Shown here one piece after another: positions 691 to 15,688 of a DNA stretch of 26,169 nt. Numbering within the stretch: the first letter of the stretch is position 1; every line of letters begins with the position of its first letter. The position numbers were made by a program, and so were the translations under genes. The notes under the pieces are model-generated. The model saw nothing but the letters and a program-made list of their open reading frames with translations, did not search any database and had not been told where the DNA came from. The DNA comes from a virus, in the UHGV virus genome UHGV-0156931; one strand, 5' to 3'.

Positions 691-1743
691 TTACGGGGTA
701 ATGCCAACCGCTGCCGCCACTTTGTCGCCACTTGGCAGCGTTGCCAGAGGATTGAAACGGAGCGCCGTTTCCAGATGATCCGGTGCCAGATGTGCGTAAC
801 GCATAGTCATTTTTATATCGTGGTGTCCGAGAATTTTTTGTAAGGCCAGAATGTTTCCACCCGACATCATGAAGTGCGCCGCAAACGTATGGCGCAGAAC
901 GTGTGTGAGTTGACCGCGAGGGAGCACGATAGACGTTTTTTCCATCACGGATAAAAATTGAAAATAGCAGTCTGTGAAGAAATTGAACCCATCAAGCGCC
1001 ATGATCTCTTCGTAAAGCTCTTTACTGATAGGGATGCTTCTGTTTTTCTTCCCCTTCGTTCTTACAAAGGTAATTCGGTATTTGGTCACCTGTGAGCGGG
1101 TAAGATTTACGGCTTCTCGCCAGCGTGCGCCTGTGCTTAAGCATATCTTAACTACCAGTGCCAGAATTGGCTCCTGACGTTTGCAATCAGCCAGTAATTC
1201 AACAATCTGCTCATGGGTAAGCCATGCCATCTCTTTTTCTGCGATGGTGAATTTTCGCATGTTCTCCAGTGGGTTCGGATACGACCATTCGCCCAGGCGG
1301 GATAGTTCGCTAAAAACACTACTTAGATAGCTTTGCTCCAGGTTAATGGTGACCGGGCTTGCTCCTTTCTTCCATTTCTCGCTGAAGTAGATCTCACCTG
1401 TCAGGCGTTTATCTCGATAGTGGGCAAACATTTTAGAGGTTAGATCAGTTGCAAGGGGATTGCCCAGAGCGTCAACCATCAGCAGCAATTTGTCATAGAC
1501 ATGCTGCCCAGCAGTCAGAGATTTACCATGTAGTTTGAACCATAGCTCAACCACGTCTTTCAGTGTTCGACGATCCACTGATTCACCCAGCCAGGGCTTT
1601 GCTTCGGTTTCTTCCATCGTGTGACGCTCAAAAGCCAGTGCTTCGCCTTTGGTGGCGAATTGTTTACGCACACGACGCCCACTACGTCCGGCGGGGTAAC
1701 ATTCGCAAAGCCATTTTCCTGTGGTGAGTTTTCGTACAGCCAT
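691..1743 (-). CDS. int: Tyrosine integrase, P2/186 Int type
   Basis: ORF 691..1821; the internal ATG at 1743 gives MAVRKLTTGKW..., colinear with the P2 Int N-terminus as recalled. C-terminal catalytic region has R...HxLRHT...Y (LTHVLRHTFA...MRYAHL). 3-prime end abuts host DNA, as expected for attL. Confidence 0.93.
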   Translation of the reverse strand: MAVRKLTTGKWLCECYPAGRSGRRVRKQFATKGEALAFERHTMEETEAKPWLGESVDRRTLKDVVELWFKLHGKSLTAGQHVYDKLLLMVDALGNPLATDLTSKMFAHYRDKRLTGEIYFSEKWKKGASPVTINLEQSYLSSVFSELSRLGEWSYPNPLENMRKFTIAEKEMAWLTHEQIVELLADCKRQEPILALVVKICLSTGARWREAVNLTRSQVTKYRITFVRTKGKKNRSIPISKELYEEIMALDGFNFFTDCYFQFLSVMEKTSIVLPRGQLTHVLRHTFAAHFMMSGGNILALQKILGHHDIKMTMRYAHLAPDHLETALRFNPLATLPSGDKVAAAVGITP

Positions 1744-1822
1744 AAAAAATGCCCTCCAGTGGAGAGCATTTTTACTGTATATATAACCAGTGTCAATGTA
1801 TGAATTTGTATAGCCATACATA

Positions 1823-3365: not shown

Positions 3366-4022
3366 TTATCTAACATACTTAACTGTTAAGCTTATAATTT
3401 TTCCAATTATTTCAACATCTTCTATCTTGCACTCGAAGGCTCTGTTTCCACCTTCAACGAAAATTCTTCCACCGGGTAAACGAGTGATGTCGCGGATTGT
3501 TATTTCGCCATCAATACTTATTACCCATTTACCATCACGTATATCATCAAATTCTTTATCACAAATAAATTCAGAATTGTTATCTGTGATGACAAAAGGT
3601 TTTTTAAACGTAGAGGGTAGAAATCCCTTATCAAAAATATAAAAACCGTCTTCCTGCAATGCTCCATCAGACAATAAATATTTTACTACTTCTATAGTAT
3701 TTGTATTTGCTGATGCTTGCTTTGAACCATGCCCTGTTGTTAGCCAATTAAGCGAGGTACCCGTTTCAAGGGCGCACTGGATTACCCAATCTGCCGGAAA
3801 AATATCACGCATATAACGCGTTGCCATGGTGCTCTTAGAAACACCTAAATGATCACAGAGAGCCTGACGGGTACCGAACCCGTATGCTTCAACCAAACGT
3901 TCTATGGCTTTCTTACCGCCGCTATTGAAATCCACAAATCCTCCAAAGAAATCCAAAATTCGTTGACAGATTCCAAAAGCGATCTTAAAGTTGAACCAGA
4001 AGTCTTCTTTTGGAGCCTTCAC
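3366..4022 (-). CDS. cI: Immunity repressor, 186 CI type (N-terminal HTH)
   Basis: 218-aa ORF starting at GTG 4022. Segment ERLVEAYGFGTRQALCDHLGVSKSTMATRYMR...CALETGTSLNWLTTGHG matches the HTH region pattern of 186-type CI as recalled. First gene of the leftward operon ending in int. True start may be internal. Confidence 0.8.
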   Translation of the reverse strand: MKAPKEDFWFNFKIAFGICQRILDFFGGFVDFNSGGKKAIERLVEAYGFGTRQALCDHLGVSKSTMATRYMRDIFPADWVIQCALETGTSLNWLTTGHGSKQASANTNTIEVVKYLLSDGALQEDGFYIFDKGFLPSTFKKPFVITDNNSEFICDKEFDDIRDGKWVISIDGEITIRDITRLPGGRIFVEGGNRAFECKIEDVEIIGKIISLTVKYVR

Positions 4023-4284: not shown

Positions 4285-4348
4285 TAGACGTCTATTTTCG
4301 CAATAAGACGCTGAGTTCGATTTTGCGATAAGTTCGGAATTGAAAACC

Positions 4349-4858
4349 ATGTTTGATTACCAAGTTTCCAAACATCCACATTTTGATGAAGCCTGTCGTG
4401 CATTCGCACTGCGCCACAACCTGGTGCAGCTGGCAGGACGTGCAGGAATGAATGTGCAGATTCTGCGAAACAAGTTGAACCCTGCTCAACCTCATTTATT
4501 AACCGCACCAGAAATTTGGCTGCTTACCGATCTGACTGAAGATTCGACGCTGGTAGATGGCTTTCTGGCTCAGATTCACTGTCTGCCATGTGTACCGATT
4601 AATGAGGTAGCAAAAGAGAAACTGCCACATTACGTCATGAGTGCAACCGCAGAGATCGGACGTGTTGCTGCAGGTGCGGTATCTGGCGATGTAAAAACCA
4701 GTGCAGGTCGTCGTGATGCTATCAGCAGCATTAACTCTGTAACACGACTGATGGCGCTGGCTGCTGTTTCATTGCAGGCCCGTTTACAGGCTAATCCTGC
4801 GATGGCGAGTGCAGTTGATACCGTGACTGGCCTCGGTGCTTCATTCGGTTTGCTGTGA
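4349..4858 (+). CDS. cII: CII-type regulator (phage 186 CII / CP76 family)
   Basis: ORF 4340..4858 begins at TTG; the ATG at 4349 gives 169 aa starting [12 protein letters not shown]..., matching the recalled length and N-terminus of 186 CII. Immediately follows apl. Confidence 0.85.
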
Positions 4859-4865
4859 GGTGCTT

Positions 4866-5099
4866 ATGCTGACGAAAGAACCATCATTTGCATCGCTGCT
4901 GGTAAAACAAAGTCCGGCAATGCACTACGGTCACGGCTGGATTTATTTACCTTGTGGGAAAAAGTGGCATCCAAGTTTTGAATTACAACCCCGGCAACAG
5001 GCTTACCGGGGAAGAAATAAAAAGCGATTCCTACAAAGATTTATGGTTAACGTGGCAAACAACCTGCGAACCAAGCGAAAAGTTTTTCTTGGAAGCTGA
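4866..5099 (+). CDS. Small early protein in the fil position; paralogous 5-prime end to the ORF at 5723
   Basis: ATG at 4866 with GAGGTG upstream. 77 aa, MLTKEPSFASLLVKQSPAMHYGHGWIYLPCGKKWHP... The first ~28 codons lie in a 63-bp segment repeated at 5686-5748. 3-prime end overlaps the convergent antisense ORF 5047..5505. Confidence 0.4.
   Translation: MLTKEPSFASLLVKQSPAMHYGHGWIYLPCGKKWHPSFELQPRQQAYRGRNKKRFLQRFMVNVANNLRTKRKVFLGS
4883..4945. repeat. 63-bp direct repeat, copy 1 (one mismatch versus copy 2)
   Basis: atcatttgcatcgctgctggtaaaacaaagTccggcaatgcactacggtcacggctggat recurs at 5686-5748 with C for T. Coordinates +/-2. Confidence 0.85.
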
Positions 5100-5505
5100 G
5101 GTTTACATCGTCAACCCGACCACAGGCAATAGCAGCTCTTTTGTAGGCAGGGTTTAACAAAGATCCGAATGTTGTGGAGTCAGAGTGATGCAAAGCTTTC
5201 AATTTTTGTGCAATGAACTGTGGAGACAATTCATCCTCGGCGTAAAGCAACTCACCATATTGTCGGCTTTGTACGCTTGCTCGTTCCGCAATAATAGCTG
5301 GTTGCCATACAAGTTGGATTGTTGCGATTACAACAACAGGAAAAGCGAACAACCATTCCAGACCTGTATTAGCAAATACAGCTGTTCCGCTTATAAGTTG
5401 GATTGCTGTCATTAATTTATCAGCTCGACCATGGAACGTTGCTGTCATTAGTTCAAGGTAATAACAGTAGTGTAATTGGAAGTATTCGGAGCTTTGTTTA
5501 GTCAT
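5047..5505 (-). CDS. Antisense-oriented membrane protein (152 aa), candidate moron
   Basis: ATG at 5505 with AGGAAT-type RBS. Hydrophobic segment LEWLFAFPVVVIATIQLVW. Transcribed opposite to the early operon and visibly lower in GC than its flanks. No recognised family. Confidence 0.5.
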   Translation of the reverse strand: MTKQSSEYFQLHYCYYLELMTATFHGRADKLMTAIQLISGTAVFANTGLEWLFAFPVVVIATIQLVWQPAIIAERASVQSRQYGELLYAEDELSPQFIAQKLKALHHSDSTTFGSLLNPAYKRAAIACGRVDDVNLSFQEKLFAWFAGCLPR

Positions 5506-5685: not shown

Positions 5686-5748
5686 ATCATTTGCATCGCT
5701 GCTGGTAAAACAAAGCCCGGCAATGCACTACGGTCACGGCTGGATCAT
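5686..5748. repeat. 63-bp direct repeat, copy 2
   Basis: See copy 1. Here the repeat supplies the 5-prime part of ORF 5723..5965. Confidence 0.85.
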
Positions 5749-5965
5749 GGGTGAGGATGGTAAACGCTGGCATCCATGTTATTCACAAGATGAATTGCTG
5801 TCTGAAGTGACCACGAGGAAACGGAGAAAGTCCAAATGTATGCGGCAGAAAGTGAAGTGGTTTATCAGTTTCGTTACAGAGGGGATAGTTATTCAGTACC
5901 TGAAGATGATTTGCTCTGTTGTTATCCGTCGTTGTCGGGCGATGGCAGTTACTTTTTCACACTAA
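5723..5965 (+). CDS. Small early ORF (80 aa), second paralogue of the fil-like gene; extent uncertain
   Basis: MHYGHGWIMGEDGKRWHPCYSQDELL... parallels the copy at 4866 beyond the identical DNA (GKKWHP versus GKRWHP). No good RBS. 3-prime half overlaps ORF 5836..6060 in another frame. Confidence 0.3.
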   Translation: MHYGHGWIMGEDGKRWHPCYSQDELLSEVTTRKRRKSKCMRQKVKWFISFVTEGIVIQYLKMICSVVIRRCRAMAVTFSH

Positions 5966-6725: not shown

Positions 6726-6952
6726 TGGCTGATGCAATGGATCTCGTACAGCAGCGCGTTGAAGAAGAACGCCAGCGCCATATTCGTGCTGCCCGTGCCA
6801 AAACACCGGGCGTGTCTCGCGTGCTTTGTATTGAATGTGAAGCGCCAATTCCGCCAGCACGACGCCGCGCCATTCCGGGAGTGCAGCTTTGCATTACCTG
6901 CCAGGAAATCGCAGAGCTGAAAGGCAAACATTACAACGGAGGTGCTGTATGA
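6725..6952 (+). CDS. TraR/DksA-family C4 zinc-finger protein
   Basis: 75 aa with CIEC-x17-CITC, the spacing typical of the TraR/DksA C4 zinc finger. Translationally coupled to neighbours on both sides. Confidence 0.75.
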   Translation: MADAMDLVQQRVEEERQRHIRAARAKTPGVSRVLCIECEAPIPPARRRAIPGVQLCITCQEIAELKGKHYNGGAV

Positions 6953-7806
6953 GCACCATCCTGAAATGGGCGGGAAATAAAACCGCCATTATGTCCGAAC
7001 TGAAAAAACACCTTCCTGCTGGCCCGCGACTGGTTGAACCTTTCGCGGGTTCCTGTGCTGTGATGATGGAGACGGATTACCCCAGCTATCTGGTTGCGGA
7101 TATTAATCCTGATTTAATCAACCTCTATAAAAAGGTTGCCGCTGATTGTGAATCGTTTATATCTCGCGCCAGAGTTTTATTTGAGATCGCAAACAGGGAG
7201 GTGGCTTATTACAACATAAGGCAGGAGTTTAATTACTCCACTGAAATTACTGATTTCATGAAAGCGGTATATTTCCTGTATCTCAATCGTCACGGTTACC
7301 GTGGTTTATGTCGCTATAACAAGAGCGGGCATTTCAACATTCCCTACGGTAATTATAAAAATCCGTATTTCCCTGAAAAAGAAATTCGCGCATTTGCAGA
7401 AAAGGCCCAGCGAGCAACGTTTATCTGCGCCAGCTTTGATGAAACGCTGGCGATGTTGAAGGCGGGGGATGTGGTGTATTGCGATCCGCCGTATGACGGT
7501 ACGTTTTCCGGCTATCACACTGACGGCTTCACTGAAGATGACCAGTATCACCTGGCATCTGTTCTTGAACATCGGTCATCAGAAGGACATCCGGTCATTG
7601 TTTCTAACAGTGACACATCCCTGATCCGTTCGCTGTATCGCAATTTTACTCACCACTACATCAAGGCAAAACGCAGCATCGGTGTGGCAGCTGGCGAGGG
7701 TAAATCAGCAACAGAAATCATTGCTGTTTCCGGGCCGCGCTGCTGGGTGGGATTTGATTATTCGCGTGGCGTGGATAGTTCTGCCGTGTACGGAGTACGT
7801 GCATGA
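6949..7806 (+). CDS. dam: Orphan DNA adenine methyltransferase (Dam-like)
   Basis: ATG at 6949 gives [11 protein letters not shown]... (285 aa). SAM-binding motif FAGSCAV and catalytic DPPY (VVYCDPPY). No adjacent restriction endonuclease gene. Confidence 0.9.
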
Positions 7807-10217
7807 GTCATGCCGATATGAACAACTGCTGCGGCTTTAACGAGGCTGCCGCAGCATTCTCATGGAACAGCCCGAAAAAGGCCATTAACCCTTATCTGGA
7901 CCCGGCGGAAGTTGCGCCGGTTTCTACGCTTTCAAACCTGATCACTCTGTACGCTGCCGATAACGAGCAGGAACAGTTGCGCCGCGAGGCACTGAGTGAT
8001 CAGGTCTGGGAGCGTTATTTCTTTAATGAATCACGTGATCCTGTCCAGCGCGAAATGGAGCAGGATAAGCTCATTAGCCGGGCAAAGCTGGCGCATGAGC
8101 AGCAGCGTTTTAATTCAGACATGGTCATTCTGGCGGACGTCAACGCCCAGCCTTCCCATATCAGCAAGCCGCTGATGCAACGTATTGAATACTTCAGCAG
8201 CCTGGGCAGGCCAAAGGCTTATTCCCGCTATTTACGTGAGACGATTAAGCCATGTCTGGAACGACTGGAGCATGTACGCGACAGTCAGCTATCTGCATCT
8301 TTTCGCTTTATGGCAAGCCATGAAGGGCTGGACGGCCTGCTGATCCTGCCTGAAATGAGTCAGGATCAGGTGAAACGCCTGTCCACCCTGGTAGCTGCGC
8401 ATATGAGTATGTGCCTTGATGCAGCTTGTGGTGATTTGTATGCCACCGATGACGTTAAGCCAGAAGAAATCCGCAAGACATGGGAAAAGGTGGCAGCGGA
8501 AACCCTGCGTCTGGATGTCATCCCACCTGCGTTTGAGCAACTCCGTCGGAAAAGAAACCGCCGTAAACCCGTGCCCTATGAACTCATTCCGGGTTCGCTG
8601 GCGCGTATGTTGTGCGCCGACTGGTGGTATCGGAAATTATGGAAGATGCGTTGCGAATGGCGGGAAGAGCAGTTGCGCGCTGTTTGCCTGGTCAGCAAAA
8701 AAGCATCTCCTTATGTCAGCTATGAAGCCGTGATGCATAAACGTGAGCAGCGCCGTAAGTCGCTGGAGTTTTTCCGTTCTCATGAACTGGTGAACGAAGA
8801 CGGCGACACGCTGGACATGGAGGATGTGGTAAACGCCAGCAGCAGCAACCCTGCGCATCGCCGCAATGAGATGATGGCCTGTGTTAAAGGTCTGGAGCTT
8901 ATCGCGGAAATGCGCGGTGACTGCGCCGTTTTCTACACTATCACCTGTCCGTCGCGTTTCCATTCCACGCTAAATAACGGCAGACCAAACCCGACCTGGA
9001 CAAACGCGACGGTAAGACAAAGCAGCGATTATCTGGTCGGCATGTTTGCTGCATTTCGTAAGGCGATGCACAAAGCCGGGTTGCGCTGGTATGGCGTGCG
9101 GGTGGCTGAGCCGCATCATGATGGCACAGTTCACTGGCACCTGTTGTGTTTCATGCGCAAAAAAGACCGCCGTGCCATCACTGCATTACTGCGTAAGTTT
9201 GCCATCCGTGAAGACCGCGAGGAGCTGGGCAATAACACTGGGCCGCGCTTTAAGTCTGAGTTGATTAACCCGCGCAAAGGAACGCCGACAAGCTACATCG
9301 CGAAATATATCAGTAAGAACATTGACGGTCGTGGTCTGGCTGGCGAGATCAGCAAGGAAACGGGTAAATCTCTGCGTGATAACGCTGAATACGTGAATGC
9401 CTGGGCGTCTCTGCATCGTGTTCAGCAATTCCGCTTCTTTGGTATTCCGGGGCGTCAGGCTTACCGTGAACTTCGCTTGCTGGCTGGTCAGGCGGCAAGG
9501 CAACAGGGTGACAAAAAAGCAGGTGCGCCGGTACTGGATAACCCGCGTCTTGATGCCATTCTGGCTGCTGCTGATGCTGGTTGTTTTGCCACCTACATCA
9601 TGAAGCAGGGCGGCGTACTGGTTCCCCGTAAATATCACCTCATCAGAACCGCTTATGAAATCAACGAAGAGCCGACCGCCTATGGCGATCACGGCATTCG
9701 TATTTATGGCATCTGGTCACCCATTGCAGAGGGCAAGATCTGCACTCATGCAGTGAAGTGGAAAATGGTTCGTAAAGCCGTTGACGTTCAGGAGGCGGCA
9801 GCCGACCAGGGCGCTTGCGCCCCTTGGACTCGTGGCAATAACTGTCCCCTTGCTGAAAATTTGTACCAACAAGGGAAAGACAAATCAGCTGATGGAGATA
9901 CCAGAACGGATATCACCCGCATGGATGACAAGGAGTTGCACGATTACCTGCACAGTATGAGCAAAAAAGAGCGCCGGGAACTGGCAGCAAGGTTACGCCT
10001 TGTGAAACCGAAACGGCGTAAAGACTACAAACAGCGAATTACAGATCATCAGCGACAGCAGCTCGTGTATGAACTGAAGTCCAGGGGATTTGATGGCAGC
10101 GAGAAAGAGGTCGATTTACTGCTTCGCGGCGGCAGTATTCCGTCAGGAGCAGGCCTGCGTATCTTCTATCGGAACCAGCGTTTGCAGGAAGATGATAAGT
10201 GGCGAAACCTGTATTAA
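7803..10217 (+). CDS. A: Replication initiation endonuclease (P2 gene A family, rolling-circle)
   Basis: 804-aa ORF, last and largest gene of the early operon, start overlapping the dam stop. Size and position fit P2 gpA. Family assigned by synteny and length; catalytic residues not mapped. Confidence 0.85.
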
Positions 10218-10370: not shown

Positions 10371-10559
10371 ATGCAGGACTATTTTTTGGAGTCTTTGAAG
10401 CTCCAGCGCATTGATTTTTTTCTTAAGCTTGTAGCGGCTAGTGAGTGTAGTGATGAAGAGAAGGGGCTGGCCCTGCAGTGGGTTTCTGAACTGACAGATG
10501 AACTCATGGCAAAAATCAGAACCCACGAATACAACCGCTCAATGGATGTCATCAGCTGA
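10371..10559 (+). CDS. Small SOS-regulated protein (62 aa), possibly the N-terminal part of a Tum-like antirepressor
   Basis: ATG at 10371 preceded by AGGAGGAAAG. First gene after the LexA box. Ends 10 nt before the DinI-like ORF, which is in another frame. Confidence 0.5.
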   Translation: MQDYFLESLKLQRIDFFLKLVAASECSDEEKGLALQWVSELTDELMAKIRTHEYNRSMDVIS

Positions 10560-10569
10560 GGTGACTTTT

Positions 10570-10803
10570 ATGCGCATTGAAATAATGATCGATAAAGAGC
10601 AGAAGGTTAGCCAGTCTACACTGGACGCCCTTGAATCCGAGCTTTACCGCAATCTGCGCCCCCTGTATCCCAAAACGGTAATTCGTATCCGCAAAGGTAG
10701 CTCTAACGGTGTGGAACTGACCGGACTGCAACTGGACGAAGAAAGAAAACAAGTGATGAAAATTATGCAGAAGGTGTGGGAAGACGACAGCTGGCTGCAT
10801 TAA
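10570..10803 (+). CDS. DinI-family protein (DinI-like, possibly the C-terminal module of a Tum-type antirepressor)
   Basis: 77 aa; MRIEIMIDKEQ...LDALESEL...KIMQKVWEDDSWLH aligns by eye with E. coli DinI (MRIEVTIAK...IDALAGEL...ILQETWESADDW). GAGGTG RBS. Downstream of the LexA box. Confidence 0.8.
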   Translation: MRIEIMIDKEQKVSQSTLDALESELYRNLRPLYPKTVIRIRKGSSNGVELTGLQLDEERKQVMKIMQKVWEDDSWLH

Positions 10804-10935
10804 GAAACGTTGCTGGCGTCTGAACTTGCTTCTGGCGTCAGCAAGGTTGAACAACGAGCTGTGCGAGGCGTTAGCTCTGTGGTGCATGTCTATGCCGCAT
10901 GAGATCGCATGATCGTTTGAGGATCGTTTTTGCTA

Positions 10936-10964
10936 AGGCCTGCCAGAACTGGCGGGCTTTTGTG
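10936..10964 (+). terminator. Putative intrinsic terminator after the SOS module
   Basis: GCCTGCC-agaact-GGCGGGC stem (one G-U pair) followed by TTTTGTG. Three GATC sites cluster just upstream. Coordinates +/-2. Confidence 0.35.
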
Positions 10965-11006
10965 TAGATCATGCAGGTGCATGAAAACCACTACATAAAG
11001 CGGGCA

Positions 11007-11025
11007 GGCGTGGCGGGGATACGAG
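11007..11025. other. Candidate cos site (cohesive-end region)
   Basis: GGCGTGGCGGGGATACGAG: the first 13 nt match the P2/186 cohesive-end start GGCG(A/T)GGCGGGGA as recalled. Position relative to Q and P fits P2-family cos. Recollection-based. Confidence 0.35.
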
Positions 11026-11033
11026 CGCGCGCA

Positions 11034-11056
11034 TTGATTTCAAAAGATGAAATCAA
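11034..11056. promoter_or_regulatory. Palindrome TTGATTTC-N7-GAAATCAA upstream of the 565-aa cargo gene
   Basis: Perfect 8-bp inverted arms (11034-11041, 11049-11056) about 50 bp upstream of the ATG at 11103. Possible operator or promoter element. Confidence 0.3.
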
Positions 11057-11102
11057 GTGGTACGATAAGTAGGATTACTACCAATTCTCAAAGGGATGTC
11101 TC

Positions 11103-12800
11103 ATGCATAGAATTGTTAAAGCTCATCTTGATAACTTCGTGAAAAGTCACGGTATTGAAAATCATCAAGAGGACACGCAGTTCGAGCTATTTTGTAATAA
11201 AGCTTTGCTGTCTTCTCGTATAAGTATGGATTATGAAATTGACGATGTAACAACCGGGGCTGGTGATGATGGCATGGATGGTGTTGCCATCATAATTGAT
11301 GAAGAATTGTGTATATCTTCTGAAGATGCTACTTCAATATTTTCCTCATTACGTAAAAATCATGATGTTGATATTGTTTTCATTCAATCAAAGCGTAGTG
11401 AGTCTTTTGATTTAGGTGATTTTTTAAAGTTTAAAGCTTCCGTTTTTAGATTTATAGAGGATTCTCCTTACTTATGTGTGGATGAAATTCAAAAAAATGC
11501 AAGGGAAGTTTTTGATGTCATAATAAAAAATGTACCTAAGATAAGAGGTGGGCGACCAACTTTTACTGCTAAATATGTTGCAACTGGTTTATATAAAAAA
11601 CCTAAAGAGTTAGAGAATGCTCGGAAGTTATTTGCAAAAGAAATTGACGAGTTGGGATATTTCTGTAATGTTAGCGTTGAGTTTGTTGATCGTGATGAAT
11701 TAACACGTACTTGGATTGATACTTATTCAGTTGTCAATGCTGAATTGCCATTATTTAGTAATGCACCACTTCCCAAAATTAATGGTATAGAAGAAGCTTA
11801 TCTTGCTGTCGTTAAAGCAAAGGATTTTGTTGGTAATTTATTGATGACGGACGAGGGGTCTCTCCGTAATCATGTTTTTGTTGAGAACGTCCGGGCGTTC
11901 TTGGGAATTGATAATCCTGTTAACGCATCGATTGCTGAGACAATTAAAAATAAAGATGCCGCTTCACGATTTCCTGTTTTAAATAATGGAATAACAATTG
12001 TTAGTCCGGATGTAAAACTTCAAGGGAGTATTTTACATCTAGAAAATTTTCAGATAGTTAATGGCTGTCAGACATCAAATGTGCTTTACGAATGCCGCGA
12101 TTCCTTAGATGATACGATGATGGTTAACTTGAAAGTCGTAGAGACATTAAACGAAGATGTTTTTTCAGAATTGGTTCGAGCGACTAACAGTCAGACTAAG
12201 GTTGATGAGACTCAGTTCTATTCTCTTCGTCCAATAATAAAGAAAGTAGAAGCGTACTTTGATACTTATGAAGGGCAGGATGGTCGTTTATATTTAGAAA
12301 GACGTGAAAGACAATTTATCGGTAGAGATATACCTGCAGTTAGAGTATTTTCAGTTCATATGGCAGCTAAATGTGTAGCAGCTATGTTCTTCCGTCGGCC
12401 AGATCTTTCATACAGATACCCTAAAAAAATGTATGAATTGTTGGCTGAGAAAATATTTTCTAATGATACCAAGGAGATTGTATTTTATTCAGCATGTTTA
12501 ACATTATATAGATTACACTTACTTACTTCTAATGCTGATATTCCACAAAATATCAGGAAGTACAAATGGCATTTAATGGCGGTAGTTGGTGCTTTAATTG
12601 CCGGAAAGGATGTGCCTAATTTTGGCTCTAAGAAAATGGATGCGTATTGTAATAAAATCATCACTGAAATGACAAAGCATGGTGATAAAATAAAAGCTAC
12701 TTTCCAGAAGGCTGTTGATATTGTTTTGTCAATTGATGATATCACTGATGATAGAATGAAAAGGCAAGCTATTTTAGAGGAAATGCTTGCCAAGATTTAA
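11103..12800 (+). CDS. 565-aa cargo protein: Mrr-like PD-(D/E)xK nuclease N-terminus with an AIPR-like body; candidate abortive-infection/defence protein
   Basis: Intact ORF, RBS AAGGGA. N-terminal TGAGDDGMDGVAIIID...VDIVFIQSKRS resembles the GDxGxDG...QxK signature of Mrr-type nucleases. Later NGITIV...IVNGCQTSN motif recalled from AIPR-type proteins (unverified). No Walker A. Strongly AT-rich. Bracketed by terminators. Confidence 0.85.
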   Translation: MHRIVKAHLDNFVKSHGIENHQEDTQFELFCNKALLSSRISMDYEIDDVTTGAGDDGMDGVAIIIDEELCISSEDATSIFSSLRKNHDVDIVFIQSKRSESFDLGDFLKFKASVFRFIEDSPYLCVDEIQKNAREVFDVIIKNVPKIRGGRPTFTAKYVATGLYKKPKELENARKLFAKEIDELGYFCNVSVEFVDRDELTRTWIDTYSVVNAELPLFSNAPLPKINGIEEAYLAVVKAKDFVGNLLMTDEGSLRNHVFVENVRAFLGIDNPVNASIAETIKNKDAASRFPVLNNGITIVSPDVKLQGSILHLENFQIVNGCQTSNVLYECRDSLDDTMMVNLKVVETLNEDVFSELVRATNSQTKVDETQFYSLRPIIKKVEAYFDTYEGQDGRLYLERRERQFIGRDIPAVRVFSVHMAAKCVAAMFFRRPDLSYRYPKKMYELLAEKIFSNDTKEIVFYSACLTLYRLHLLTSNADIPQNIRKYKWHLMAVVGALIAGKDVPNFGSKKMDAYCNKIITEMTKHGDKIKATFQKAVDIVLSIDDITDDRMKRQAILEEMLAKI

Positions 12801-12852
12801 TTATACCTTGACATGTATATTAACGTGATTTTTTAAGTTGAATATCTAAGTA

Positions 12853-12884
12853 AAAAGAGTGCTTTTATTGTTAAGCACTCTTTT
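12853..12884. terminator. Bidirectional intrinsic terminator between convergent genes
   Basis: Perfect 12-bp inverted repeat AAAAGAGTGCTT / AAGCACTCTTTT with 8-nt loop, flanked by U-runs on both strands. Lies between the cargo gene stop (12800) and the Q stop (12888). Confidence 0.65.
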
Positions 12885-12887
12885 TTA

Positions 12888-13922
12888 TTAAGCTAACTCA
12901 AGGCTATATGTATTGAATTTAATAATGTCATCTTCTACCCACTCATTAATTTCTTTGATTCTTTCCTGTAAGGGGGTTAATTCGTTACGGACGAATACCT
13001 TGCTGGCTTTTTCAATATCGCCAAATCCACCAGTGTTTTGTGGAATAATGCCCATCATCTGCGGAGGAACTCGATGTGCTGCCATCATGTCATCGCGACT
13101 GACATTTTTGATATTCAGAAACTCATCCTTCGCCGCGACTTCTGACAACGGGATGATCTGAAGCCCGTCCTTTTTGCCGTTAGGCGAGTACATAAACAAA
13201 TTGCGGAAGTTGCCTGGACCTTTGGCACTTTTCATCGCGTTGCGGAGGTTGTTTACATCTTCCTGGTTTTGCGCGGCGTCGGTCATGTACATGATGAAGC
13301 CTGCATGACTGCCGTTAATGTAATACTTCCGGCGGAACAGCGTGGCGGACTCGTTGAGCAGGGCTGACGGAATGACAGAAAGATAGCCGGGCAGGCCGTA
13401 GATTTCTTGATTAATATCCGGCTCCATCAGGTGAAAAATGCTGCCTTTCGTGAACTGATACGGCTGCGTGGTCATGCCGTATTGCACAAACCAGTAGGTA
13501 TCCAGGTCTAACCCGCGTCGGGTGTATTTTGCCAGCGCAGGCTCAAGGGCGATAACTTCACCGAATCGGTTCGTGCGTTTCTCCAGGTAGGCGTTACCAA
13601 ATACCAGATAGTCCTGCACAAAACGCGAAAAAGCCTGCTGGCTGAGCAGCGGATGAGGGATATAGGTACTGGTCAGAATGTTGCATTTCACCGCAATTGG
13701 TGAACTGTGGTGCACGGCAGCGCGGAAGGTGCGCGCCAGTCCGTCAAAGCTGACGGGCGGCTCATACCAGCGATCTGTCTGTACGCATTCCACATAGTCC
13801 AGCAGTTCTCGGCGGTCCAGAACAGGAACGGGATCGCCGAAGCTGAATACTTCGGCTGTAGTCTGGCTTTTAAGCTGGATCTGTTTCGTCGCCGCAGCGC
13901 GGTTTTTCTTACTCTTTCCCAT
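12888..13922 (-). CDS. Q: Portal protein (P2 gpQ family)
   Basis: ATG at 13922 (ORF 13925 begins at TTG) gives 344 aa, the size of P2 Q. Start overlaps the terminase stop. Position next to cos and upstream of terminase P. Confidence 0.9.
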   Translation of the reverse strand: MGKSKKNRAAATKQIQLKSQTTAEVFSFGDPVPVLDRRELLDYVECVQTDRWYEPPVSFDGLARTFRAAVHHSSPIAVKCNILTSTYIPHPLLSQQAFSRFVQDYLVFGNAYLEKRTNRFGEVIALEPALAKYTRRGLDLDTYWFVQYGMTTQPYQFTKGSIFHLMEPDINQEIYGLPGYLSVIPSALLNESATLFRRKYYINGSHAGFIMYMTDAAQNQEDVNNLRNAMKSAKGPGNFRNLFMYSPNGKKDGLQIIPLSEVAAKDEFLNIKNVSRDDMMAAHRVPPQMMGIIPQNTGGFGDIEKASKVFVRNELTPLQERIKEINEWVEDDIIKFNTYSLELA

Positions 13923-15688
13923 CAAAAAATCTCCACAATATTGCTGGTATTGGCGGACTCGCCCTGCAGCGGTTCGTTAAACAGTGCGTGCATTGTTGCC
14001 CAGGCCAGATCGGCATGGCTGGTTTCTTCGCTGCGGCTGGCTTCATAGGTTGGGCGGTTGCCGCTGGCAGTGGTGGCGCGACGGATTGCCATAAAGGACT
14101 GCGCTATGTCGGTGTGCCCGGCGTCAAACTCTAGGCGGCGGTGGCTAATAATGTCGTAGGCCTTGAGTACCAGGGCGTTTTTAACGTTGGGGTTGTAGAC
14201 AAACTCCCGGACGGCAGGAAAAAACGCTTTCACGTTCTCGTAAACCCCGTGACCGACGCCGGTTGAGTCGATACCGATATATGTCACGTTGTACTGTTCG
14301 GTCAGTTTTTTGATGGCGTCAGCCTGGGCGCGGAAGTCCATTCCGCGCCACTGGTGACGCTCAAGAATGCGGAACTTACCACCTGGCACGGCTGGCGGTG
14401 CCACCACCACGCATCCGGCGCTGTCGCCGTTCTGCGTACCTTTTGCCGGGTCATAACCGATCCACACTTCGCGCCAGCCAAACGGGCGCAGCGCCAGTGC
14501 ATGAAAGTCGGTCCAGACTTCCCAGCTGTCTACCATGCACGCCTGCAGCTCGCTGAGCGGGAATACGGACGCGAGATCGTCCACGAACTCACACATCAGC
14601 AGATTCTGGTATTCGTCCGGGCTGTACTCCATGCGCAACTGGTCAAGGTCGAACAGGTTACATCCGCCGCGCACCGCATCTTCCACAGTGACTATCTGGC
14701 GGTACTGCCCGTCTGCGCACAGCAGGCCGGGGGCCAGATTGCTGTGGGACAGGTCGATGTCCACCTTATCGGCTTTGTTGCGCCCTCGGTTGAACAGCGC
14801 ACCGGACCAGAACGGATAAGCACTGTGTGTCAGGCTGGATGGCGTGGAAAAATAGGTCTGTCGCCATTTTTTGTGAATAGCCATACCGGAAGCCACTTTG
14901 CGCAGCTCCTGGAATTTCGGTATCCAGAAATATTCATCCAGATACAGGTTGCCGTGGTAACTCTGGGCCGTGCGGGCATTGGTGCCGAGGAAGTAAAGCG
15001 TGGCCCCGTTAGGAAGCACCATCGGATCACCTTTCAGCTCCACCTCGACTTCTTTGGCGAAATCGATGATGTACTGCTTAAAGACGTGAGCCTGTGCCTT
15101 ACTGGCAGAAAGGAAAATCTGGTTACGTCCGGTAAGCAGGGCGTCAATCAGGGCCTCACGGGCAAAATAGAAGGTCGCGCCGATCTGGCGTGACTTTAGC
15201 AGGTTGCGGATGCGGTTGGTTTTTCCGGCTTCCCACCAGTGGCGCTGGTAGTTAAACATGGAGGAATGGAAAATTTCTTCCAGCTTCTCAATTTGTTCAT
15301 CGGTGAAAACATTCTTTTCAGGCTGACGGCGTGGGCCTTTGTTGCGGTTGGCGACGTTAGGGTTTAAGTCGGCTTCGTTGCCGCCATTGTTAAACTTGCC
15401 GATCCGCGCGTGGCGCTCAGACTGGCGCGCCAGCAGGTCAATCTCTTTGAAATCTTTCCCTTCTTTGTGCTCCTTCATGATGAGCTGGCAGTAGCGTGCG
15501 GCGGTGGTGAGCTGCATCTGATCCAGCGGCCCATAGTCACCCCACTTGTCGCGTTTTTTCCAGCTGTGAACGGTTGCAACTTTCTCGCCCAGCATTTCAG
15601 CAATGCGGGCTACGCGGTATCCCTGAAAGTACAGCAGCATGGCCTGCCGACGGGGATCGAGATCTGCGGGTGTCAGTGTGGTGTTCAT
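13922..15688 (-). CDS. P: Terminase large (ATPase) subunit (P2 gpP family)
   Basis: 588 aa, divergent from O; size and position fit P2 gpP. Assignment by synteny and length. Confidence 0.9.
   Translation of the reverse strand: MNTTLTPADLDPRRQAMLLYFQGYRVARIAEMLGEKVATVHSWKKRDKWGDYGPLDQMQLTTAARYCQLIMKEHKEGKDFKEIDLLARQSERHARIGKFNNGGNEADLNPNVANRNKGPRRQPEKNVFTDEQIEKLEEIFHSSMFNYQRHWWEAGKTNRIRNLLKSRQIGATFYFAREALIDALLTGRNQIFLSASKAQAHVFKQYIIDFAKEVEVELKGDPMVLPNGATLYFLGTNARTAQSYHGNLYLDEYFWIPKFQELRKVASGMAIHKKWRQTYFSTPSSLTHSAYPFWSGALFNRGRNKADKVDIDLSHSNLAPGLLCADGQYRQIVTVEDAVRGGCNLFDLDQLRMEYSPDEYQNLLMCEFVDDLASVFPLSELQACMVDSWEVWTDFHALALRPFGWREVWIGYDPAKGTQNGDSAGCVVVAPPAVPGGKFRILERHQWRGMDFRAQADAIKKLTEQYNVTYIGIDSTGVGHGVYENVKAFFPAVREFVYNPNVKNALVLKAYDIISHRRLEFDAGHTDIAQSFMAIRRATTASGNRPTYEASRSEETSHADLAWATMHALFNEPLQGESANTSNIVEIF

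Follow-up and report, generated by a model that had tools for sequence, protein, structure and literature searches.

What does a gene that is clearly more AT-rich than its neighbours do between the cohesive-end (cos) site and the portal gene of a P2-like prophage? The question is raised by UHGV virus genome UHGV-0156931, whose full stretch of 26,169 nucleotides is referred to here as the window, and in which an open reading frame (ORF) of 565 aa with an ATG start occupies positions 11103-12800 on the plus strand. An original prediction, made from the sequence alone, had described it as a horizontally acquired single-protein defence gene with an Mrr-like nuclease N-terminus and an AIPR-like body. 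Our computational analysis suggests that it is probably an AbiU-type (AIPR) single-protein anti-phage gene, carried as accessory cargo in the cos-portal slot of an Escherichia coli P2/186/Fels-2-like prophage. This reading is based on family membership, predicted folds, residue conservation, the single-gene cassette, the variable slot, foreign composition and purifying selection.

Family membership and predicted architecture

The family of the protein was assigned by profile searches. The Pfam AIPR model (PF10592) matched aa 260-514 at E 1.5e-43, with 150 bits against a cut-off of 25 and coverage of profile positions 2-274 of 308. The PADLOC AbiU model (PDLC02357) matched at full length (E 4.4e-112; aa 2-563 on profile positions 3-532 of 537), and PHROG 1841, "Abi alpha-like abortive infection mechanism", matched at E 5.2e-147. 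The E. coli copies are labelled "AIPR family protein" in RefSeq. The AIPR assignment of the original prediction was thus borne out. No such support was obtained for a named family at the N-terminus: apart from AIPR, the whole protein had no Pfam match at E<=1, Mrr_cat (PF04471) included, and aa 1-250 alone had none at E<=0.01. Formal membership of Mrr_cat was rejected because the isolated N-terminus matches nothing in Pfam. The Pfam search of the whole protein likewise matched no DUF262 or GmrSD model, and sequence searches of the PDB, with the single protein and with a 120-sequence profile, gave no match.

Structure prediction and a fold search, both proposed in the original prediction, did find a nuclease fold. 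An AlphaFold2 (AF2) model of the protein (pLDDT, predicted local distance difference test, 82.7; pTM, predicted template modelling score, 0.75) and a separate model of aa 211-565 (pLDDT 82) suggest three modules: an N-terminal PD-(D/E)xK nuclease, a central ParB/sulfiredoxin-like domain and a helical C-terminus (Table 1). The best fold match of the N-terminal module was FokI (score 10.5, 147 residues aligned), followed by N.BspD6I (8.5), MspJI (8.2), the small subunit of R.BspD6I (8.1), AF1548 (8.0), AspBHI (7.8), LlaBIII (7.4) and Avs4 (7.2). For aa 211-565 the matches were the ParB-like protein PadC (6.0), sulfiredoxin (5.9, 83/89 residues aligned), the DUF262 proteins BrxU and SspE (5.2 each) and pNOB8 ParB-N (5.0), and the DUF262 domain of the Dnd-associated structure 9jfl also resembled the central domain. 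At the N-terminus, where acidic and lysine residues are conserved, the models thus place a restriction-endonuclease-like fold, and in the AIPR core a ParB/sulfiredoxin fold. Both agree with published work: AbiU1/AIPR has been placed in the ParB superfamily (PMC3632139), and a published AF2 model of lactococcal AbiUi superimposes on FokI (PMC13064643; our statements on lactococcal AbiU are taken from a 2026 FEMS review). The helical C-terminal ~150 residues gave no informative fold match; this all-alpha domain might serve in sensing or in oligomerisation.

Conservation was scored in 124 diverse full-length representatives with 27-57% identity; a library-wide HMMER search had returned 3602 representative clusters at E<=1e-3, of which 550 reached E<=1e-30. 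The candidate catalytic residues are E28 (97%), D59 (100%), Q95 (99%) and K97 (90%). All four motifs named in the original prediction are present in the translation (GDDGMDGV at aa 54-61, IQSK at aa 94-97, NGITIV at aa 295-300 and NGCQTSN at aa 320-326). Its emphasis on the GDDGMDG aspartates was right for D59; D55 is kept in about 64% of the homologues, and D56, like E67, is not conserved. The near-invariant residues of the AIPR core are N262, R264, N274, N294-N295-G296-x-T298, N320-G321-C322-Q323-T324, N362, Q364, R400 and R401. Among these, N294, N295, G296, T298, N320, G321, Q323, T324, N362 and R400 are 100% conserved and C322 98%. The family motifs NNGxT, NGCQT, NxQ and RR were all found in the window protein.

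How far the N-terminus can be called Mrr-like was examined with hhalign. Against EcoKMrr, D59 aligned with D203, and Q95 and K97 with Q219 and K221, at weak significance (E 0.029, probability 1.7%). With a more diverse profile the GxDG part alone aligned to Mrr, again weakly (E 0.0011, probability 21%). Compared with the nuclease domains of Mrr, MspJI and FokI, that of the window protein is fused to a different partner module and has an insert of ~20 residues (aa 66-85) separating the D-strand from the QxK-strand; its profile similarity to Mrr is weak (probability 2-21%). Since the profile statistics are weak and Mrr_cat was unmatched, the term "Mrr-like" is limited to fold and motif, for which it is apt; family membership is not established.

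The same evidence bears on the main rival explanation, a Type IV-like modification-dependent restriction enzyme, in which an MspJI/Mrr-type nuclease joined to a ParB/DUF262-like NTPase, in the manner of GmrSD, BrxU and SspE, would directly cut modified phage DNA and spare the cell. It would fit the fold similarities to MspJI and AspBHI, the alignment of the D...QxK motif with EcoKMrr, and the resemblance of the central domain to DUF262 of BrxU, SspE and 9jfl. Makarova et al. (PMC3632139) also group AbiU1/AIPR with COG1479/DUF262 ParB-like nucleases linked to restriction-modification (R-M) systems. However, the DUF262, GmrSD and Mrr_cat models were all unmatched, and no SRA-like or winged-helix modification reader was detected. 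Unlike in GmrSD, BrxU and SspE, the nuclease comes before its partner domain; it is also of the PD-(D/E)xK rather than the HNH/DUF1524 type, and the motif is NGCQT rather than DGQQR. The top fold match, FokI, is not modification-dependent. The 936, c2 and P335 phages are not known to carry hypermodified DNA. It is on these phages that lactococcal AbiU acts, delaying transcription (PMC13064643). We therefore disfavour modification-dependent restriction, which appears rather unlikely, and retain the AbiU-type anti-phage reading.

A single-gene cassette beside cos

The immediate surroundings of the gene indicate that it is cargo. Its GC content is 0.348 (0.257 at third codon positions, GC3) versus 0.529 for the rest of the prophage, with 0.529 for gpA and 0.56 for P, in line with the AT-richness first noticed. 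On its left, the motif originally described as cos-like (GGCGTGGCGGGGATACGAG) matches P2 cos at 14/19 bases, and at 82% over a 45-nt stretch that includes the P2 upstream flank. It is identical in Fels-2, ET565, SCU-306, PE144 and 30EVA1, and on this alignment it is a genuine cos site. The P2-like relatives examined are identical through cos and the following CGCGCGC (to 11032) and diverge by cargo from 11033, so the cargo cassette starts 8 bp past cos. Its right end is the terminator just before the stop codon of Q. From the cos junction at 11033 to the stop codon of Q at 12888, the sequence holds one gene, a 70-nt leader and an 87-nt trailer. Judged by its sequence, the cassette is thus single-gene, i.e. 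stand-alone by structure.

Two side observations concern this interval. The 3' end of Q (12888-13000, minus strand) is AT-rich, with a GC content of 0.318 over 12501-13000, and an alignment of Q ends shows it to differ from the P2 and ET565 versions; the right recombination boundary may therefore fall inside Q and not at its stop. A 102-aa ORF with a TTG start (12485-12793, minus strand) runs antisense to the 3' end of abiU; in such AT-rich sequence it most likely occurs by chance.

The solitary arrangement bears on a second rival explanation, that the gene is a component of a multi-gene system and inactive alone, either as MzaE of MZA or as the AIPR gene of a Type I/III R-M operon. MzaE itself (NCBIfam NF041935) was rejected as an identity for the protein, which scored 42 bits against a cut-off of 1050 with just the AIPR core (aa 258-400) aligned. 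It was also rejected on context, the neighbours being cos and portal Q, not MzaABCD. Together with a weak PADLOC match to MzaE (1.2e-9), these 42 bits are nevertheless what a multi-gene origin can draw on, besides the frequent linkage of AIPR genes to R-M loci and a Bacteroidales contig on which a 64%-identical homologue adjoins a PLD/NgoFVII-like nuclease gene. Against it, a single gene lies between cos and Q, and the same gene is solitary in Fels-2, in a Morganella lambdoid prophage and in an island rich in insertion sequences (IS). AbiUi alone is sufficient for resistance in Lactococcus (PMC13064643). Dependence on partner genes is therefore scarcely credible, and the stand-alone reading is kept.

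Other P2-like prophages fill the same slot differently. ET565 carries an ImmA/IrrE-like gene and a hypothetical gene, and SCU-306 a cytosine methyltransferase with a NotI-family endonuclease (an R-M pair). In 30EVA1 (E. coli NZ_CP138423.1, 12695-15901) a ComF-like and a hypothetical gene lie on the gpA side of cos and a frameshifted abiU copy on the Q side, showing that both sides can carry cargo simultaneously. P2 has just 167 bp from cos to Q, and its old and tin genes lie on the gpA side; the hotspot therefore has two slots, with abiU in the portal-side one. The slot belongs to the known gpA-gpQ defence hotspot described in 2022 (PMC9122126; Rousset et al.). The comparison with P2 old/tin drawn at the outset thus stood as regards a hotspot between gpA and Q with swapped cargo, and needs one refinement, as regards the side of cos. 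Like old and tin, the window gene is accessory, AT-rich and cos-proximal, in a slot with varied defence genes in sister prophages. In contrast, the proteins are unrelated (Old combines an ABC ATPase with TOPRIM), and old/tin are transcribed leftward whereas the window gene is transcribed rightward.

The closest described counterpart is abiU of Fels-2 (NC_010463; STM2723.1), an orthologue of 565 aa with 93.5% aa identity, the same orientation and the same PADLOC AbiU score, which lies directly after an identical cos and before portal Q. It differs in that synonymous divergence is near saturation (dS 1.2) though the flanks are nearly identical. The leader also differs, lacking the left arm of the palindrome, and on the gpA side of cos Fels-2 has one further gene that the window prophage lacks. 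The novelty implied by the original prediction did not hold: the Fels-2 orthologue is already called abiU in the Salmonella literature (PMC3853940), and a 2026 publication reported AbiU at hotspots of P2 and P4 (PMC13586616). Gene family and location have thus both been described before, and the finding is correct but ordinary.

The distribution of the gene is patchy. It was found in 7/5426 complete E. coli genomes, the adjacent cos flank in 1276, and Fels-2 alone among 50,697 phage records held a close copy. The gene is cargo, not core. Homologues as conserved core genes of P2-like phages, which would have spoken against the original prediction, were not what we found. Homologues with 61-67% identity occur in Bacteroidales, Desulfobacterales and many gammaproteobacteria, and distant relatives lie on plasmids. 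An 88%-identical copy in a Morganella morganii lambdoid prophage (JBECVL010000013.1, 6001-7701) sits between DnaB-type replication genes and antiterminator Q/lysis genes, which suggests that the cassette moved between unrelated temperate-phage families. The dN/dS ratio was 0.032 versus Fels-2 and ~0.03 versus PE144, with dS about 1.2-1.3. These values point to old alleles that have been kept under strong purifying selection, in a backbone that has diverged far less. Collectively, the foreign GC content, the rarity, the varied slot occupants and the Morganella copy support the view that this is horizontally acquired, accessory, single-gene cargo.

Proposed function and its alternatives

Lactococcal AbiU, represented here by a 589-aa AIPR protein of the Lactococcus cremoris plasmid pC42 as a stand-in, provides the functional analogy. 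The pC42 protein matches the same AbiU model at full length (1.2e-177) and has the same three-part layout. Its alignment to the window protein (E 4e-26) brings the E, D, QSK, NNGIT, NG(C/L)QT, NxQ and RR motifs into register. It differs in being plasmid-borne rather than prophage-borne, and in Lactococcus a second gene follows (AbiUii in the literature; a 341-aa ORF in pC42) that has no counterpart in the window.

For the window gene we infer expression, nuclease activity, a trigger and an abortive outcome along the following lines. The gene would be expressed from the prophage and its protein kept inactive. Infection by an unrelated phage would be sensed via the ParB-like and helical modules, the cue being nucleotide binding, or phage DNA or protein. 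Sensing would license the N-terminal nuclease, DNA would be cut, and the phage would be stopped early. This early halt is proposed by analogy with lactococcal AbiU and its delay of phage transcription. More tentatively, AIPR/AbiU may possibly form an undescribed mechanistic class, in which a ParB/sulfiredoxin nucleotide switch (NNGxT, NGCQT, RR) gates an Mrr/FokI-type nuclease within a single chain. A literature search on AIPR or MzaE mechanism found nothing relevant.

Several points weigh against an anti-phage role. The nuclease activity, NTP binding and trigger of the AbiU-like protein remain predicted. Lactococcal AbiU is just 24% identical to the window protein in the pC42 alignment, and it lowers the efficiency of plating just 10- to 100-fold (PMC13064643). 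A P4 hotspot study names an AIPR cassette in a figure legend, not among its seven validated systems. A consensus scan gave no convincing sigma-70 promoter upstream of the abiU start codon, and the sole plus-strand match near the start (11085-11113) overlaps the ATG. The searchable literature shows no experimental phage protection by any member of the enterobacterial clade. Finally, the most similar copy in E. coli, that of 30EVA1 with 99.1% nt identity, carries an annotated frameshift, which shows the gene to be dispensable and liable to decay.

The last two points, a clade with no experimental phenotype and a closest allele that is a pseudogene, also favour a third rival explanation, in which the gene has no host-protecting role. 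It might then serve the phage, for instance through the degradation of host or competitor DNA in lytic growth or through interference with P4-type satellites, or it might be a functionless passenger; a place beside cos and the late operon would permit read-through expression in lytic growth. A dN/dS of 0.03 with a dS of 1.2 points instead to long-term purifying selection. Nearly all P2-like phages lack the gene, which argues against a part in the phage life cycle, and it is found outside phages, on plasmids and in chromosomal islands. We consider a role unconnected with host defence very improbable, and host protection by an AbiU-type protein continues to be the preferred reading.

Flanking elements and prophage setting

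The window is a segment of an E. coli chromosome, since its rcdA flank has >99% identity to thousands of E. coli genomes, and its prophage is P2/186/Fels-2-like. The features are collected in Table 1.

Table 1. Coordinates of the cargo gene, its predicted domains, flanking elements and other prophage genes in the window
Feature	Position	Strand	Basis or remark
Integrase	691-1821	-	
KAP-family P-loop NTPase gene, 443 aa	1823-3154	-	between integrase and CI repressor
CI repressor	3366-4022	-	
CII	4340-4858		
152-aa gene, PHROG 6315 (unknown function)	5047-5505	-	between CII and Fil-like gene
Fil-like cell-division inhibitor	5723-5965		
Dam-like methylase	6889-7806	+	PADLOC oMTase 3e-111
gpA	7803-10217		
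DinI-like	10498-10803		
GC-rich hairpin, then UUUU/T-run	10936-10964	+	RNA fold
cos cohesive-end site	11007-11025		alignment to P2 cosL/cosR
Left cargo junction and abiU leader	11033-11102	+	contains palindrome, conserved block, Shine-Dalgarno
Palindrome, 9+9 bp	11034-11056		dG -11 kcal/mol, z -4.3
abiU-like gene	11103-12800	+	
Predicted PD-(D/E)xK nuclease domain, about aa 1-210	11103-11732	+	AF2 model, fold search
ParB/sulfiredoxin-like core of AIPR domain (predicted), about aa 256-400	11868-12302	+	model, fold search
All-alpha C-terminal domain (predicted), about aa 418-565	12354-12797	+	
13-bp hairpin, A-run and T-run on flanks	12852-12885	both	RNA fold
Portal Q	12888-13925	-	
Terminase P	13922-15688	-	
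Scaffold O, capsid N, tail genes	downstream		

The hairpins on both sides of the gene and the palindrome, all noticed at the outset, were recovered as RNA folds with z-scores of -3.6 to -6.6; a simple consensus terminator scan listed neither flanking hairpin. The upstream hairpin (folded within 10930-10970; dG -19.1 kcal/mol, z -3.6) recurs in Fels-2 and in four P2-like prophages of E. coli, regardless of what cargo they carry. It is part of the phage backbone rather than the cargo, and closes the early operon of gpA, orf and DinI, which runs rightward. The downstream hairpin is stable on both strands (dG -18.3 kcal/mol, z -5.6 on the plus strand; -16.4 kcal/mol, z -6.6 on the minus strand) and so could terminate bidirectionally, serving abiU (plus) and the P-Q late operon (minus) alike. 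Its position corresponds to the P2 tQ terminator in the P2 annotation, and the Fels-2 and PE144 cassettes retain it with altered sequence.

The leader holds a Shine-Dalgarno sequence, AAGGGA, at 11092-11097 and a block conserved among AbiU cassettes at about 11040-11069, within which TGgTACGAT (11058-11066) is a possible extended -10 element. The palindrome was considered as a candidate conserved operator. Since other sequence stands in place of its left arm in the cassettes of Fels-2 and PE144, it is probably not one.

Elsewhere in the prophage, the KAP_NTPase gene (Pfam 3.5e-54) is a second AT-rich cargo gene (GC 0.326). Its product matches the PADLOC candidate defence family PDC-S20 at full length (6.8e-171) and PifA more weakly (7e-16), and it is probably a second defence-type gene in the same prophage. 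An int-side hotspot in P2-like phages is mentioned in PMC13586616. The 152-aa gene has a local GC content of ~0.42 and lies on the strand opposite to its CII and Fil-like neighbours, which directly adjoin each other in 30EVA1 and ET565; it looks like another small moron. The Dam-like methylase gene encodes an orphan Dam-type DNA adenine methyltransferase and overlaps the gpA start with its 3' end, an arrangement common to Fels-2 and the E. coli relatives.

The abiU-like gene itself was already annotated and catalogued (AIPR in RefSeq, AbiU by PADLOC, abiU in Fels-2), and it adds one more documented defence gene to the cos-proximal hotspot of P2-like prophages. A small anatomical point is that cos splits this hotspot into a gpA-side and a portal-side slot, independent of each other. 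The enterobacterial clade, which retains 61-67% identity between distant phyla and occurs naturally in E. coli prophages, would lend itself to work on the trigger and the proposed switch. As an intact E. coli allele with candidate catalytic (E28, D59, Q95, K97) and switch (N320-T324, R400, R401) residues, the window gene offers a convenient start for AbiU/AIPR biochemistry.

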